Below are positions 5,478 to 33,875 of a stretch of 64,000 nt of DNA, piece by piece. Position 1 is the stretch's first letter, and each line of letters opens with the position of its first letter. Below the pieces are notes generated by a model. The model was not told the DNA's origin. It did not search any database and saw nothing but the letters and a program-made list of their open reading frames with translations. Origin of the DNA: Nanobdellota archaeon. GTDB lineage: Archaea; Nanobdellota; Nanobdellia; Parvarchaeales; Parvarchaeaceae. The translations under genes were made by a program, and so were the position numbers. The stretch lies in contig JAKAPM010000003.1 of the NCBI GenBank assembly GCA_021807085.1, positions 2,014-66,013 on the forward strand, in the 5' to 3' direction.

Positions 5478-6152
5478 ATGAGAGCTCTAGTCCTGTCGCT
5501 AGGGATAGCGTTCGTAGTGATATTCGTGCTACTGTTCCTGCTAGTGAATTATAATACCATCTACAAATGGGATGAATCCGCGTTCCTACTGATTAATTCC
5601 ACGTTCAATGTTTCGTATCTTAACGGCTTTTTTGCTGCCCTGTCTATTTACGGAAGGGAGTACTTTTGGGTGCCCGTAGTGATACTGTTGTGGCTGTTGG
5701 GCAAGGAGAACGGCAAGAAAACTGCACTTATGATGGTGATTGTATTCGTGCTTGTCATAATAATAGGGTTCGCCCTGAAAGATGTCTATTACAGGCCTAG
5801 ACCGTTCCTTTCTATTGTCAACGCGATAGTGCTGGTTCCAAAAGATTTTGATTCGTCCTTTCCTTCCGGCCACGCTCTTGTGGTGGCCGCGGGTGCCACC
5901 GTAGCGTTCCTTATGCTCAAGAAACGCTATTCTATACCTCTGCTGATCGAGGCTGCGCTGGTGATATACTCAAGAGTGTATGTTGGAGTGCACTACCCAA
6001 CAGACGTCGTTGCCGGGCTGTTTCTCGGAGCCGCCATTGCTCTAATAACTTACGCCCTTTTAGTCGATTCAAGGGTATTCAGGACGATTTCAGAGGCTTT
6101 GATTTCTATCTATAGTAAGGTTATCTCCACCGTTAGATTGAAACGTATCTGA
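5478..6152 (+). CDS. PAP2-family membrane phosphatase (phosphatidic acid phosphatase type 2 superfamily)
   Basis: 224 aa polytopic protein with PAP2 motifs KxxxxxxRP (YYRPRPF), PSGH (SFPSGHA) and SRxxxxxHxxxD (SRVYVGVHYPTDV). Confidence 0.75.
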   Translation: MRALVLSLGIAFVVIFVLLFLLVNYNTIYKWDESAFLLINSTFNVSYLNGFFAALSIYGREYFWVPVVILLWLLGKENGKKTALMMVIVFVLVIIIGFALKDVYYRPRPFLSIVNAIVLVPKDFDSSFPSGHALVVAAGATVAFLMLKKRYSIPLLIEAALVIYSRVYVGVHYPTDVVAGLFLGAAIALITYALLVDSRVFRTISEALISIYSKVISTVRLKRI

Positions 6153-27579: not shown

Positions 27580-27882
27580 TTAATTTTTTTCCAACTGTTT
27601 CTGGAAGTCCTGTACTTGTTTTGTTAGGTCCTCGACCGATTTGTTTATAGATTTCATCCTGTACTCCAGTATCTCGCTCTTTTCCGAGAGCTCTTTTTTG
27701 AGCGTTTCTTTGTCCTTCTTTATCAGTATCTGTCCGGACAATTCGAACAGTTCATCTGAACCAGCTTTTTCTATTTCTTCGATAGTTCTCTTTATATCGT
27801 TGTATTGTAGTTGTGCGGCCTGTTTCTGGCTAGTTTCTATCTGCAGCCTCTGTCTTAGCTCATCATATTCGTTTTCATTCAT
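27580..27882 (-). CDS. pfdB: Prefoldin beta subunit
   Basis: 100 aa coiled-coil protein with a central beta-hairpin region (LSGQILIKKDKETL); conserved archaeal neighbourhood with pcc1, rpoP and rpl37ae. Confidence 0.75.
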   Translation of the reverse strand: MNENEYDELRQRLQIETSQKQAAQLQYNDIKRTIEEIEKAGSDELFELSGQILIKKDKETLKKELSEKSEILEYRMKSINKSVEDLTKQVQDFQKQLEKN

Positions 27883-28121
27883 AGTTTCCTTATGTCATCT
27901 AGCATTTTAATAGATTGCAAGATGGTGTTGGCAGTAGACACTAACATATTTGTGTCGGCAGCCTCTATAGTTACGATTGTGGCTTCCTTCTTCTCGTTTA
28001 CTGAAAGTCGGAATCTTGTATTCTCAGATTCGTGAATAGACAGCGCCCTATAGAATTTTCTATGTTCCTTGTCGGTCAGGCTGAGTACTAGTTTGAATTG
28101 GAACCTAGCGCGCCTTGACAT
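27879..28121 (-). CDS. pcc1: KEOPS complex subunit Pcc1
   Basis: 80 aa. Pcc1-like pattern (IEAADTNMLVSTANTILQSIKML); conserved position between rpoP and pfdB. Confidence 0.6.
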   Translation of the reverse strand: MSRRARFQFKLVLSLTDKEHRKFYRALSIHESENTRFRLSVNEKKEATIVTIEAADTNMLVSTANTILQSIKMLDDIRKL

Positions 28122-28623: not shown

Positions 28624-28631
28624 TTTATAAG
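28624..28631 (+). promoter_or_regulatory. Candidate TATA box (ttttataa) 23-30 nt upstream of the ATG at 28654
   Basis: AT-rich octamer at canonical archaeal spacing for a leaderless mRNA, inside the 205-nt divergent intergenic region between rpl37ae and the wHTH membrane protein. Confidence 0.3.
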
Positions 28632-28653: not shown

Positions 28654-29640
28654 ATGCGTAAATCAGTTTTAGTAGCCGCACCCATTCTAGCTGCGGTTTT
28701 GCTGCTGTCGGCTGGTACTGTTAACGCTCTTGTATATTCAAACGTTCAGATATCGGCAAACGTGACGCAGGTTTACACCCAACTGTCTTTGTCATCGGTA
28801 AGGTACGTCACAACATTCTACAACCTTCCAGATTCTTCTTTCAATGTAAGTTTCCCCCGTGGCGTGCAAAATCTGAAATTGCTGAGCGGGGCCTCAAACA
28901 TGACTATCCTGCCGGTGGCTTACTGCCATTCCGACCCGCCGACCCAGCCATGTATGCTGGTTAGAGTCTATGGAATTAGTGATGGCGTGCCGATAGTTTT
29001 CACGTACGACTTTAACGAGACATACACAGGAGGATCTGACTTATTTAATACTAGCCTGAATTTCCTACCATCGACATTCACTCAGGTGCTCAACATAACC
29101 ATGCTTCTCCCGTCAACAGCATATCTGCCGTCAAATCCCTACTATTCCCTCAACCCATCATCCTTTACCTCCTCTAGCGGCAGGTTTTCCGTAACTTGGC
29201 TATTTGCAAACCAGACGGCGCCTTTTCTTCTCAATAATCAACTCACTTATATTGATCTCCCGTTTACTATAGAGTATGCCGGTTCCTTTCGTCCGCAGCC
29301 CGGCAGCGCCCCTCTTTCCTATACCGAAATAATCACTGCGGTTGCTGTAGTGACCGTATTGGTAGGTTTATGGCTGTGGCTGATGTTTAGGCGACGAATA
29401 GTTCCAAAGAAAGTCAGTAGACGCAAGAAGAACAACAGTCTTTTCTCTAGGCTGCTGACCGAGAATGAAAAAAAGGTGCTGAGCGCCATCAGCAGGAATG
29501 GCTTTACCCAACAGTCAGAGGTGATTAGCAGCACTGGTTTCTCCAAGGTAAAAGTAAGTAAGATAGTCTCAAAACTTTACAAATACCGACTTATCAAGAT
29601 AAAATCAAACGGCAGGCAGAACATGTTGAAACGTTCATAA
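28654..29640 (+). CDS. Single-pass membrane protein: extracellular N-glycosylated domain, TM helix, cytoplasmic winged-HTH (MarR/TrmB-like) domain
   Basis: 328 aa. Signal peptide VLVAAPILAAVLLLSAGTVNA; about 15 NxS/T sequons; TM IITAVAVVTVLVGLWLWLMF; basic stop-transfer RRRIVPKKVSRRKK; C-terminal LTENEKKVLSAISRNGFTQQSEVISSTGFSKVKVSKIVSKLYKYRLIKIKSNGRQNML, a wHTH-like pattern. Confidence 0.5.
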   Translation: MRKSVLVAAPILAAVLLLSAGTVNALVYSNVQISANVTQVYTQLSLSSVRYVTTFYNLPDSSFNVSFPRGVQNLKLLSGASNMTILPVAYCHSDPPTQPCMLVRVYGISDGVPIVFTYDFNETYTGGSDLFNTSLNFLPSTFTQVLNITMLLPSTAYLPSNPYYSLNPSSFTSSSGRFSVTWLFANQTAPFLLNNQLTYIDLPFTIEYAGSFRPQPGSAPLSYTEIITAVAVVTVLVGLWLWLMFRRRIVPKKVSRRKKNNSLFSRLLTENEKKVLSAISRNGFTQQSEVISSTGFSKVKVSKIVSKLYKYRLIKIKSNGRQNMLKRS

Positions 29641-29643
29641 CCC

Positions 29644-29979
29644 ATGTACAACAAAATGAAAGGTTACAGAGTAGAGAGAAAAGTAAAACTGATGTTCGTA
29701 GCGGATGGTTGGAAAGTCGTGCGCGCTGGAGGAAGCCTGGGAGAGTACGACTTGATAGCGTTCAAGAACGGGGAATGTGTATTTCTTCAGATAAAATCCA
29801 CTAAAAAGGATAAATTCTACTACTACGGCTACATGGAAGATAAGTACGAAGGCTTCCCTTTCAGGCTGGTCGTGGATTTTGGCAGGGGCAACGTTAGGAT
29901 AACCAAGCCGGGCAAGATGCTAACCGCTTCAGAAGGGGAGGGTTTGGAGGATTTTCTGCACGGAAACAGTTTCCATTAG
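29644..29979 (+). CDS. hjc: Holliday junction resolvase Hjc (catalytic motif variant E->Q)
   Basis: 111 aa. Collinear with my recollection of Pyrococcus Hjc: KGYRVERKVKLMFVADGWKVVRAGGSLGEYDLIAFKNGECVFLQIKSTKKD against ERELIKLL..VVRSAGSKKVDLVAG..IEVKVTKKD. The third catalytic position reads Q-I-K, not E-V-K. Starts 3 nt after the upstream gene. Confidence 0.75.
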   Translation: MYNKMKGYRVERKVKLMFVADGWKVVRAGGSLGEYDLIAFKNGECVFLQIKSTKKDKFYYYGYMEDKYEGFPFRLVVDFGRGNVRITKPGKMLTASEGEGLEDFLHGNSFH

Positions 29980-30027
29980 TTTCTAACAAATATTTTAATA
30001 TCATAAGTTTTTCCTATAATTATTAAA

Positions 30028-30075
30028 AATTAAAGGCGGTCCTCGCTTACTCGGACTCGGGTACCGCCTTTAATT
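30028..30075. terminator. Perfect 13-bp inverted repeat hairpin between convergent genes (candidate bidirectional terminator)
   Basis: AATTAAAGGCGGT (30028-30040), a 22-nt loop, then ACCGCCTTTAATT (30063-30075), flanked by A/T-rich sequence. Lies in the 129-nt gap between hjc (+) and sec61-beta (-). Confidence 0.35.
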
Positions 30076-30108
30076 ATTATTTCTATCAAATCCTAGAACA
30101 CAAAACGT

Positions 30109-31338: not shown

Positions 31339-31457
31339 TTAGTTTGATAAAAATGTATACTATTTAACTCTTTCTGTAGCTTCCAGTGTTGTATCCCGCC
31401 TGTGTAGAAAATCTAACTATTTGGCACAGATTTAAATTCCAGAAGCATCTAAACAGT

Positions 31458-33875
31458 ATGAAATCGCCCATCATCATACTTGTAGTTCTGCTGCTAGTTA
31501 GTGTGGGTACCGTCCACGCGTCTATAACTCTCAACATGAATGAAATCCCGCTGCAGGGACAGGCGTGCACCTTCCTGTCGCCCCAGCAACTGCAGACAGC
31601 CTACGGTTTCGGCCAACTCTATAGTTCCGGCATAAACGGTAACGGCCAGAGTGTAGCTATAATAGTGGCGTATGGAGACTCCAACCTCCAGGCCGACGTA
31701 AATGCGTTCGACTCGCAATACAGTTTGCCGTCGCTGTCCGTTGGATCAAACCTTATGGTGGTAACTCCGTTCGGAAAACCGCAAAGCAGTTTCACGAACT
31801 GGACGGCTGAGACTGCCCTAGACGTTGAGACTGTGCATTCGCTTGCGCCCGGAGCCAGGATATATGTAGTGGAAGCCCCAAACGAAAACTCTCTTTTCTC
31901 CGCGATAAACTATACTGTTAATAACCTGCCCGTAACTGTAATCTCCGTGAGCTGGGGAAGTTCTGAATCCAGCTACACCAGCAGCGACATAAGTTATCTC
32001 AACAGCGTATTATACAACGCGGAGCAGAAAGGAGTGAATATCTTCGTTGCTTCCGGTGATACAGGCGCTTATAACTCCCAAAGCTTCCCAAACGTCAATT
32101 TTCCCGCTTCCAGTCCGTACGTAGTGTCTGTGGGCGGCAGCACCCTCTCGGTGAGTTCTTCAGGCTCCTATCAGGGCGAAACCGCTTGGAACGGCAGCGG
32201 GGGCGGTAACAGCGAGTACTTCTACAGACCCCCTTTTCAGCCCGATCTCAACAGCTATAGGATGGTGCCTGACGTGGCTTTTAACGCTGGTACGCCTGTT
32301 TGCATAGAGTCCAACCTATCCATCAGGGGATATTACGGCACTAGTCTATCCGCCCCATCCTGGGCGGCAATAGACTCGCTGATAAACCAGAAGGTAAAGG
32401 GGGACAAAGCATTCCTGCTGCAGGAGCTCTACAAGACGTATTCCGACTACGGTTCGCTGGCATTCAACAGCATAACCAGCGGATGCAACGGCCTGTACTG
32501 CGCATCAAACAGTTATAACGAGGTCACAGGACTCGGATCGCCGAAGGTATACCAGCTTGTTCAAATAATATCCAAGGCCCAGTACAAGATAACGTTCGAT
32601 CCGTCAACGACCGATTCGGTTTTCAGCGTGAACGGCATCAATTACTCCTCAACTGTATCGCTAAACTTTACGTATGGACAGAAGGTGAGCATAATAGCGT
32701 ATTCTGGAAAAGTACCGGATGTAGGGGTGGTAAATTTCAGCTCGTTCTCCGGTATTGTTAACGCCGCTGACTCCGCAGTTGTGTTTTTCGTAAACACCTC
32801 CGGCATACTCAGCATCCATTTCAACGAGTATTTCATAGTATCCCTCAATGGTGTTATGGGTAATTCTACTTCGGCTTCGTTAATGAAGAACGGCAGTTCT
32901 CTCGACCTTACCTCTCCTTTGTACGTCAACTACAGCGGCGTGCAGTACACTTTAGTAGGTTTCACTATGAACGGCGGACCTGTGGTGTATTCCGGCGCTT
33001 ACAGTATAGATGTGTACGCACCGATGAATGTCAGTTTCGTTTGGCATAAGATTGCGAAGACGCCAATAGCTACCGAACCGATACCATCGCTGTTGGTTAC
33101 AGTTTCGTTCTATTCTTTTGCGCCTCTTTCAAACAAAATTACACATGAGTTGGCCACTCTATCTGGATCTTCCGGTGTGTTTGCTGTGAATGGAACAGAG
33201 ATAAGTGTTTACAGCAAACCGCAAGTAGTCTCGGGTTACAGGTACGAATTGGCGAATTTCACCACAGCCTCCGGGCAGCAAATAATAGTAAACTTCACGA
33301 AAGAAAAGTCTATAAACGTCAGTTTCTACTCCGAACAGGATGTGAGCATAGTTCCCAGCTCCCTACAGGTAGGTTTTGACGGGGTGAACGAAACTTACAT
33401 AAACAGCACCACCATATGGGGTCCGCTGTCTGGCGGTGTAACTATCGAGAGCGTCCTGTACAAAGGAGTAGAGATGCTGGATCAGCCAGTCCGCCTGTAC
33501 TCCAATTCCAGCGGGGCTAACCTTACGCTTCCTATAAGTGATGTTACAGTCCGGCTAGTAACATATTTCGGCATACCTGTGGTAGGGGCAGGAATCTACC
33601 TATCATTCGATAACATATCAATATATAACTCCACAAGTATTTCCGGCAGCACCACATTCTACAACATCCCCCAAAAACCATATAGCCTCAGAATAAACGC
33701 ATACGGTACAAAATATACGTTTAGTAATCTAGACACAGCATCGCTGGACTTGACTGTGTCCCCTATACTGTACCAGCTGTACATAATACTGGGACTCGTT
33801 CTGGTTGTGCTGTTGTCGCTGTTCCTGTTCGAGAGGCTGAAGCACCGCTCCAACAAGAGTCACAGTATTAAATAG
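31458..33875 (+). CDS. Sedolisin-like (peptidase S53) secreted serine-carboxyl protease with large glycosylated C-terminal region and C-terminal TM anchor
   Basis: About 805 aa from the MKSPIIILVVLLLVSVGTVHA signal peptide. The ORF extends upstream to 31386, but the signal peptide fixes the start at 31458. S53-type motifs: TAETALDVE (catalytic Glu/Asp), ASGDTGAY (oxyanion Asp), GTSLSAPSWAA (catalytic Ser). More than 30 NxS/T sequons and a C-terminal TM ILGLVLVVLLSLFLF. Confidence 0.75.
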   Translation: MKSPIIILVVLLLVSVGTVHASITLNMNEIPLQGQACTFLSPQQLQTAYGFGQLYSSGINGNGQSVAIIVAYGDSNLQADVNAFDSQYSLPSLSVGSNLMVVTPFGKPQSSFTNWTAETALDVETVHSLAPGARIYVVEAPNENSLFSAINYTVNNLPVTVISVSWGSSESSYTSSDISYLNSVLYNAEQKGVNIFVASGDTGAYNSQSFPNVNFPASSPYVVSVGGSTLSVSSSGSYQGETAWNGSGGGNSEYFYRPPFQPDLNSYRMVPDVAFNAGTPVCIESNLSIRGYYGTSLSAPSWAAIDSLINQKVKGDKAFLLQELYKTYSDYGSLAFNSITSGCNGLYCASNSYNEVTGLGSPKVYQLVQIISKAQYKITFDPSTTDSVFSVNGINYSSTVSLNFTYGQKVSIIAYSGKVPDVGVVNFSSFSGIVNAADSAVVFFVNTSGILSIHFNEYFIVSLNGVMGNSTSASLMKNGSSLDLTSPLYVNYSGVQYTLVGFTMNGGPVVYSGAYSIDVYAPMNVSFVWHKIAKTPIATEPIPSLLVTVSFYSFAPLSNKITHELATLSGSSGVFAVNGTEISVYSKPQVVSGYRYELANFTTASGQQIIVNFTKEKSINVSFYSEQDVSIVPSSLQVGFDGVNETYINSTTIWGPLSGGVTIESVLYKGVEMLDQPVRLYSNSSGANLTLPISDVTVRLVTYFGIPVVGAGIYLSFDNISIYNSTSISGSTTFYNIPQKPYSLRINAYGTKYTFSNLDTASLDLTVSPILYQLYIILGLVLVVLLSLFLFERLKHRSNKSHSIK

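Follow-up and report, generated by a model that had tools for sequence, protein, structure and literature searches.

Clade-wide glutamine at the motif III glutamate position of a compact Hjc-like protein, and its gene pairing with a predicted membrane-anchored winged-helix protein in Parvarchaeota

Among archaeal Holliday junction resolvases Hjc is the textbook example, with an E-D-E-K centre that is regarded as invariant. In Sulfolobus, the catalytic centre is formed by E12, D42, E55 and K57, and the Hjc-type signature reads E-x-D-EVK (PMC6555300; PMC8805305). Here we describe two adjacent genes of a Nanobdellota archaeon (Parvarchaeales), located at positions 28654-29979 of a 64,000-nucleotide (nt) stretch of contig JAKAPM010000003.1 (the window, to which all coordinates refer unless another locus is named). 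The first gene encodes a predicted single-pass membrane protein with a C-terminal winged helix-turn-helix (wHTH) domain, and the second encodes an Hjc-family protein with Gln at the place of the motif III Glu. What is new here is a Gln-for-Glu Hjc site shared by a whole clade, together with a Parvarchaeota-specific bicistronic link to the membrane-anchored winged-helix protein. As a system it belongs to a type already known, and the finding should be mildly surprising to nuclease specialists.

Both products have described counterparts. Single knockouts of hjc and of hje have been obtained in S. acidocaldarius (PMC8775617), and in S. islandicus it is just the two genes together that cannot be deleted (PMC6555300). 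An earlier note on this DNA had called the nuclease essential, which in view of these knockouts is too strong for Hjc generally. Membrane-anchored DNA-binding regulators occur in 367 of 404 archaeal species, at ~4 per genome and with 56% of them single-pass (PMC10269533), a distribution at odds with the same note's view that the topology of the first gene product is rarely described in archaea. Characterised archaeal representatives include ArnR and ArnR1 of Sulfolobus; in ArnR an N-terminal wHTH is followed by a HAMP-like domain and, at the C-terminus, by two transmembrane helices (PMC12107092).

The Hjc-like gene (29644-29979, plus strand) encodes 111 amino acids (aa). Its product is predicted to have the same fold as Hjc (Pfam PF01870; structures 1GEF, 1HH1 and 2WCW) and Hje (1OB8). 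Like canonical Hjc it is small and basic (~110-140 aa across both groups), and the helix-1 Glu, the helix-1 Arg, the loop Ser (R-x-x-x-S), the strand-2 Asp and the x-K of strand 3 are collinear. The family to which it belongs, hereafter called Q-type, differs from canonical (E-type) Hjc in carrying an invariant Gln for the motif III Glu, in being ~10-30 residues shorter and in having a FYYYGY segment in the place of a helix. The catalytic tetrad E...D...E-x-K of archaeal Hjc is accordingly absent in its standard form, with E11-D36-Q49-K51 found instead.

The Pfam Hjc model recognises the protein with 31.5 bits against a gathering cut-off of 21.1, matching model positions 2-55 of 93. On the same model, canonical E-types score 66-86 bits and Q-types 28-40 bits. 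The NCBIfam Hjc equivalog NF040854 reaches 17.8 bits against a cut-off of 70, and this failure fits the NCBI records that call family members 'hypothetical protein'; the homologue from ARMAN-5 (EFD92835.1) is named 'Resolvase, Holliday junction-type'. As the strict model misses the family, these lineages look Hjc-less in annotation. The designation hjc given in the earlier note is thus supported by Pfam and by the fold, while the equivalog model and the E-D-E-K tetrad speak against it. The protein is best placed in a distinct compact Q-type Hjc subfamily (~109 aa) and is not a typical Hjc.

Alignments with solved structures place the Gln in the catalytic column. In phmmer comparisons with 1GEF, 4TKD and 1HH1 the sequences are collinear, with LQIK facing IEVK in the P. 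furiosus protein and IEMK in that of S. solfataricus, and Q49 (codon CAG, 29788-29790, plus strand), at the motif III (E-x-K) position, aligns with E46 of the former and E55 of the latter. The correspondences ERK/ERE, VVRAGGS/VVRSAGS and TKKD with Pyrococcus Hjc, which the earlier note had quoted, are visible in the phmmer alignment, and the homology that it claimed, together with its placement of Q at the catalytic Glu, is thereby confirmed. A misalignment of the Gln was considered and rejected, as the three independent PDB alignments and a hidden Markov model (HMM) alignment of 150 representatives agree on the Glu column.

An AlphaFold2 (AF2) model, built from a 64-sequence alignment, was obtained with a predicted local distance difference test (pLDDT) score of 87 and a predicted template modelling (pTM) score of 0.80. 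In a Foldseek search with this model, the 25 best PDB matches were all Hjc or Hje, with TMq values of 0.55-0.76 (0.71-0.76 to 1GEF). The model comprises helix 1, three strands, a short strand, a loop (aa 53-70) and, after further strands, a short helix at the C-terminus. Between strands 3 and 4, the site of the second core helix of canonical Hjc, no helix is predicted, which accounts for the smaller size; the invariant FYYYGY segment of the loop takes the place of that helix. Within this region, the aromatic stretch D/K-K-F-Y-Y-Y-G-Y-M at aa 56-70 (29809-29853), in which Y59 is invariant and Y60, Y61 and Y63 are nearly so, is a candidate alternative dimer interface. The dimer interface of P. 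furiosus Hjc uses two Phe residues on the second core helix. Since that helix is not predicted here, the dimer contact of the Q-types would have to differ from that of P. furiosus Hjc.

Among 5.8 billion proteins searched, 168 homologues were detected, and the 120 of them that were listed are 101-144 aa long (mostly 104-117), are 52-100% identical to the query and, where the source is named, come from Parvarchaeota, Aenigmatarchaeota and Acidifodinimicrobium. All 120 carry Q49, along with G7, Y8, E11, W23, R27, G29, S31, G33, D36, K51, S52 and Y59, and helix-1 R12 is found in 119. A genome scan with one genome per GTDB species identified a relative in 108 genomes, from which 80 loci were retained; E-D-Q-K is encoded in every one of the 80. 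Of these genomes, 47 use CAG for Gln49 and 33 use CAA, and this use of both codons indicates that selection acts on the amino acid. A one-off mutation or a sequencing error can be dismissed on these grounds, given the presence of the Gln in all listed proteins and all retained genomes and its encoding by both codons. The earlier note had left it to an alignment of orthologues whether the Gln is lineage-conserved, and these comparisons answer that it is.

Furthermore, an exhaustive HMMER profile search matched 904 of 1.84 billion representatives of 50%-identity clusters at E ≤ 1e-3. Of the 150 best-scoring of these 904, 126 have E-D-Q-K and 15 have E-D-E-K, with E11 and D36 present in all those aligned; because Q is part of the search profile, the Q:E ratio in the top hits is inflated, and this has to be counted against a literal reading of it. 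Even allowing for this bias, the hits show that a large and diverse Q-type clade exists, and judged from the alignments Gln49 is a family signature and not a lesion. A widespread clade, with relatives in the 108 species-level Parvarchaeota and Aenigmatarchaeota genomes, has exchanged the motif III Glu for Gln, which purifying selection strongly maintains; E-D-Q-K is also the tetrad of most of the nearest metagenomic relatives. E-type neighbours include the canonical Hjc proteins of Methanocaldococcus and of the DPANN order Anstonellales, and the distribution of the Q-types looks complementary to that of E-type Hjc, the latter being seen in Anstonellales. A literature search found no paper linking Holliday junctions with Parvarchaeales.

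More distant Q-types were also encountered. Some of them (P0184, P0187, P0193 and P0215) are fusions of 200-250 aa with extra N- or C-terminal regions, and a separate, high-GC-looking subgroup is characterised by KAKGSRxERK…LVQVKSNR. The fusion P0193 (locus L091, 6001-6756) lies on a virus-like contig that also encodes HNH endonucleases, an intein-containing DNA ligase and a protein weakly matching a histone fold, besides dozens of small open reading frames (ORFs) that run in the same direction. A viral origin of the family was considered and rejected, as the family was not found in 50,697 phage genomes or in IMG/VR; single distant Q-type members gave at most one weak phage hit.

As to function, the earlier note had left two outcomes, a PD-(D/E)xK site that tolerates Gln and an Hjc that is catalytically impaired. 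The invariant Gln, its two codons and the invariance of the other catalytic residues favour tolerance, though they do not amount to proof, and from this pattern of conservation we consider it fairly probable that the Q-type protein is an active metal-dependent nuclease with a variant site. It would be a Mg2+/Mn2+-dependent structure-specific endonuclease, in which E11 of helix 1 and D36 of strand 2 would supply the carboxylates, K51 and S31 would keep their usual roles, and the side-chain carbonyl oxygen of Gln49, or a bridging water, would serve the metal site. E11, D36, K51 and S31 have stayed invariant in sequences otherwise less than 50% identical, which argues for activity, as does the retention of Gln rather than of any small polar residue. 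In chemical terms, the oxygen of a Gln side chain is able to coordinate Mg2+ or to hold a water bound to the metal, and the role proposed for Gln49 would be similar to that of the Gln in HinP1I. Keeping acidic residues in a DNA-binding cleft across this divergence is sensible only if metal is still bound. HinP1I (S-D...Q-x-K) and MspI (T-D...N-x-K) are active PD-(D/E)xK enzymes that lack an acidic residue at the corresponding position; being monomeric, sequence-specific restriction enzymes unrelated in sequence to the Q-types, they speak for feasibility and not for homology. Active-site residues are also known to vary and to migrate between PD-(D/E)xK families (PMC3424549).

Three observations weigh against an active enzyme. 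The motif III Glu counts among the four catalytic-centre residues of canonical Hjc (PMC6555300; PMC8805305), no solved structure was found for any Q-type protein, and a comparison of Q- and E-types revealed no compensating acidic column in the catalytic core. A migrated carboxylate was thus rejected for the N-terminal core, while two acidic family-specific columns, E34 (E or D in 110 of the 120 listed homologues) and D78 (D in 109, otherwise H), stay candidates. The place of the Glu in the canonical centre and the missing acid, together with an equivalog score that marks a diverged lineage, fit a different explanation, which we regard as unlikely. According to it, the protein is a dead or attenuated Hjc paralogue that binds, shields or organises four-way junctions or forks, and the cutting is left to another nuclease, such as a canonical Hjc encoded elsewhere, Hef/XPF or a FEN/GEN-type enzyme. 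A non-cutting Hjc would be tolerable, since a strain with the cleavage-dead Hjc variant S34E is viable and more damage-resistant when Hje is present (PMC6555300). However, E11, D36, K51 and S31 are invariant not only in the 120 proteins and 80 genomes but also in ~129 divergent representatives, and two carboxylates and a general-base lysine would not be retained by a protein whose sole role is to bind DNA. The Gln, moreover, appears to be held by selection at the amino-acid level instead of drifting to A, S or N as after a loss of function. Given the small size of DPANN genomes, it also seems unlikely that each would retain a dead and redundant copy. The Q-type hjc occurs once per locus, and no second Hjc-like ORF was found in the 64-kb window or within ~6 kb of the 80 loci.

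The two outcomes carry different consequences. Should the clade prove active, what the Hjc branch of PD-(D/E)xK nucleases minimally requires for catalysis would be redefined, and a natural, very small (~109 aa) scaffold would become available for studies of metal-site chemistry. If it is inactive, these reduced genomes resolve junctions in another way.

The first gene (28654-29640, plus strand) encodes a type-I membrane protein of 328 aa that spans the membrane once and ends in a winged helix (Pfam DUF7343, E 1.8e-9). It starts with a signal peptide or signal anchor, MRKSVLVAAPILAAVLLLSAGTVNA (aa 1-25, 28654-28728), for which the 19-residue Kyte-Doolittle window reaches 2.41 at aa 5-23 and AF2 predicts a helix at aa 3-26. 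This segment is followed by an ectodomain (aa 26-225, 28729-29328), modelled as all-beta with low AF2 confidence, and by a transmembrane helix (aa 226-244, 29329-29385) with a Kyte-Doolittle value of 2.48 and an AF2 helix at aa 223-249. A polybasic juxtamembrane linker (aa 245-267, 29386-29454) connects the helix to the cytoplasmic wHTH domain (aa 268-328, 29455-29637), all of these segments lying on the plus strand. The order of the segments had been read in the same way in the earlier note, and hydropathy, charge, sequons, Pfam and AF2 agree with it.

The two sides of the membrane helix differ in charge. Behind it, 10 Lys or Arg residues fall within 22 residues (net charge +10), whereas the net charge in front of it is 0, and the linker is basic in all orthologues, with 5-12 Lys or Arg among its first 25 residues. 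Under the positive-inside rule this asymmetry places the N-terminal 200 aa outside and the C-terminal 84 aa in the cytoplasm, giving a predicted N-out, C-in topology. The family of the protein was recovered by synteny and not by sequence search, as a search with the 328-aa protein returned only itself and a profile search added three sequences. The syntenic orthologues have the same architecture and ~313-337 aa at 27-50% identity.

Lys and Arg make up 3% of the ectodomain and Ser, Thr and Asn 31%. It contains a Cys91/Cys100 pair and seven N-x-S/T sequons, compared to 3.2 expected from shuffles (p=0.027), and sequons and Cys pair are confined to the N-terminal side of the transmembrane helix. 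The same trend was observed across 24 orthologues, whose ectodomains hold 195 sequons against 96.8 expected and whose cytoplasmic tails hold 0-1 each; exactly two Cys are present in the ectodomains of 20 of the 24. From these features the ectodomain is probably N-glycosylated, and by comparison of the orthologues it is fast-evolving. The first gene product would therefore expose a variable, probably glycosylated domain to the outside of the cell. No Pfam family was detected in the ectodomain of any of the 24 orthologues and no PDB entry matched it in sequence. Built from only four sequences, the AF2 model of the 328-aa protein (overall pLDDT 56) is too weak for a fold to be assigned to this part.

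The wHTH domain is the best-conserved part of the protein, with the pattern TGFSKxKVSKIxSKL...GRxNKxKR. Pfam DUF7343 matches aa 269-326 with 37.8 bits against a cut-off of 27.6 and also matches all 24 orthologues; a literature search found no paper mentioning this family. Sub-threshold Pfam hits of the tail include TFIIE-alpha, HTH_24, MarR_2 (16.2 against 27) and TrmB (14.9 against 25.6). Here the model is of a different quality than in the ectodomain, as aa 270-328 are predicted with pLDDT 87-91 as a winged helix of three helices and two strands (H-H-H-beta-beta). Using Foldseek, it could be superposed on MarR/ArsR-type domains, e.g. PcaV (1.5 Å over 64 columns), AF1382 and Sso10a-2. The MarR/TrmB-like wHTH proposed earlier therefore holds at the level of the fold, but MarR_2 and TrmB do not reach their Pfam gathering thresholds and DUF7343 takes their place. 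The fold also matches TubR, AspA and ScpB, DNA-binding proteins without a regulatory role, which counts against reading the domain as a regulator. The modelled winged-helix fold can thus be taken as established, and a regulatory role cannot.

Most likely, the cytoplasmic winged helix would serve as a one-component regulator of the transmembrane type and bind DNA at the membrane. With its predicted DNA-binding domain, transmembrane helix and cytoplasmic side, the 328-aa protein can be counted operationally among the transmembrane transcription regulators, and it shares with this class a tethered DNA-binding domain and a non-cytoplasmic domain as the likely input. It differs from ArnR in its order of signal peptide, ectodomain, transmembrane helix and C-terminal DUF7343 wHTH. 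ToxR and CadC have an N-terminal cytoplasmic wHTH of the OmpR type and a C-terminal periplasmic sensor. In comparison, the domain order of the present protein is reversed and its wHTH is DUF7343/MarR-like rather than OmpR-type, which reduces the ToxR/CadC likeness drawn in the earlier note to an analogy. The upstream regions of the orthologous loci share just a TATA-like box, and no operator could be derived from them.

The two ORFs lie on the same strand 3 nt apart, in agreement with the earlier note, and their junction reads TAA-CCC-ATG, from the stop codon of the membrane protein gene to the start codon of hjc. The G+C content of the region is ~45%, ordinary for the window. A TATA-like box, TTTTATAA (28624-28631, plus strand), ends 22 nt before the first ATG, and a TTTATA-like box is found ~22-32 nt before the start codon of the first gene in most of the 24 orthologous loci. 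It is a candidate promoter for a bicistronic transcript with a short leader or none. Downstream, an inverted repeat at 30024-30079 separates hjc from the convergent sec61-beta gene. Its 22-nt arms are 86% complementary, its RNA fold has an energy of -23.1 kcal/mol (z = -3.6 against shuffles), and runs of T and A flank it on both sides. Rfam and tRNA searches of this hairpin gave no match, and an RNA gene was set aside in favour of a terminator; it is probably a bidirectional one that closes the two-gene unit.

Taken together, the box, the 3-nt junction and the hairpin make the unit look like one promoter, two genes and one terminator. Both genes would be transcribed from the single TATA promoter ahead of the first, and their translation would be coupled through stop and start codons that lie 1-6 nt apart or overlap in the orthologous pairs. 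Co-transcription and translational coupling are well supported by the sequence, and the operon proposed earlier is likely.

We then asked how widely the pair is conserved. The partner gene is present upstream of hjc on the same strand in 34 of 34 Parvarchaeota-type genomes, with a gap of -4 to +6 nt in 32. The two exceptions to the tight gap are ARMAN-4 and a gapped scaffold with an inserted pilin-like gene. By contrast, a partner of this kind is missing upstream on the same strand from all 46 other loci (29 Aenigmatarchaeota plus other archaeal metagenome-assembled genomes). In these Aenigmatarchaeota-type loci, a divergent metallophosphatase gene lies upstream of hjc in 34 of 46, one or two CBS-domain genes follow it on the same strand in 42 of 46, and a Toprim/DnaG-like gene, of the type seen in L007 and L010, is located downstream in 17. 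The pair is thus specific to the Parvarchaeota lineage, and a functional partnership of its members is a hypothesis. The earlier note had regarded the pairing as unusual; the gene pair is real, but it is not peculiar to this genome, being general in the Parvarchaeota-type genomes and absent from the Aenigmatarchaeota-type loci.

Individual loci showed some further features. On the ARMAN-4 scaffold GG730042.1 (L032, ~5880-5995), the wHTH gene ends early, at …SKIYQS and a stop codon, and the rest of the wHTH coding sequence resumes in a different frame. The gene thus appears to carry a 1-nt frameshift, due to an assembly error or to real pseudogenisation, and this explains the 58-nt 'gap' before hjc. 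L031 (2727-5914), on a metagenome-assembled scaffold with N gaps, is the only locus with a split wHTH-hjc pair; between the two genes lies one for a repetitive secreted protein of 836 aa, whose N-terminus (…FQSALEYVMTYGWAILIIV…) resembles that of type IV pilins. In L007, of the Aenigmatarchaeota type, a family-B DNA polymerase is encoded nearby.

The conserved pair suggests a link between the processing of DNA junctions and the cell envelope in these host-dependent ultrasmall archaea. One form of this idea, which we hold to be rather improbable, is that transcription control is not the main task of the wHTH protein, which would instead be part of a functional module that tethers DNA or the Hjc dimer to the envelope, coupling junction resolution and chromosome segregation to division or to the site of host contact. 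It would explain why stop and start codons have stayed adjacent or overlapping in 32 of 34 genomes even though the ectodomain has diverged to 26-50% identity, and the modelled resemblance of the wHTH to the DNA-segregation proteins TubR, AspA and ScpB would agree with it. A precedent exists in Firmicutes, where the gene of the PD-(D/E)xK resolvase RecU (PrfA) stands beside that of a membrane-anchored extracytoplasmic penicillin-binding protein (PMC3424549 Table 1); the RecU/PrfA structures 2FCO and 1RZN are among the distant Foldseek fold hits of the Q-type protein. RecU belongs to another resolvase family, however, and its partner is a cell-wall synthase and not a DNA-binding protein, so that the analogy is one of arrangement only.

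The neighbourhood provides evidence in both directions. In the 34 Parvarchaeota loci, the flanks contain nitroreductase in 31, S27e and L44e in 24 and prefoldin in 21, and the wHTH-hjc adjacency, kept in all 34, is the tightest of the block. On the other hand, this high overall synteny makes adjacency alone weak evidence for a tethering module, transcripts that combine unrelated genes are common in the compact genomes of DPANN archaea, and the Aenigmatarchaeota-type genomes have the same Q-type Hjc without the partner. The general synteny, taken with the CBS-domain context of the Aenigmatarchaeota-type loci, means that the adjacency may reflect genome compaction, which weighs against a functional link. 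More improbable still is the boldest combination of these ideas. In it, the Q-x-K protein would be the sole Hjc-family resolvase of two DPANN phyla, fully active one carboxylate short, and in Parvarchaeota would form a physical envelope module with the wHTH protein. This module would resolve recombination or replication intermediates or process DNA taken up from the host, controlled by the extracellular, glycosylated and fast-evolving domain acting in sensing or adhesion.

Several observations concern other parts of the window. Neither a tRNA gene (ARAGORN) nor an Rfam family at the gathering threshold was detected in positions 1-64000, which may be due to chance or to intron-containing or split DPANN tRNA genes that evade these tools. 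The genes of prefoldin-beta and L37ae are separated by an 80-aa ORF at 27879-28121 (minus strand), which related loci have conserved and which shows a weak Pfam hit to Pcc1, a KEOPS subunit, in one relative. It is not called as a gene on the contig that matches the window (L001), but it is called on the related contigs L002 and L003.

Finally, an 829-aa ORF at 31386-33875 (plus strand; called as 805 aa) encodes a sequon-rich Peptidase_S8 protein with a signal peptide and a C-terminal transmembrane helix. It is followed by the gene of a T2SSE-type secretion ATPase (746 aa) and by that of a 709-aa protein without a family. The Peptidase_S8/T2SSE block (L001, 11815-18609) recurs beside the wHTH-hjc pair in related genomes.

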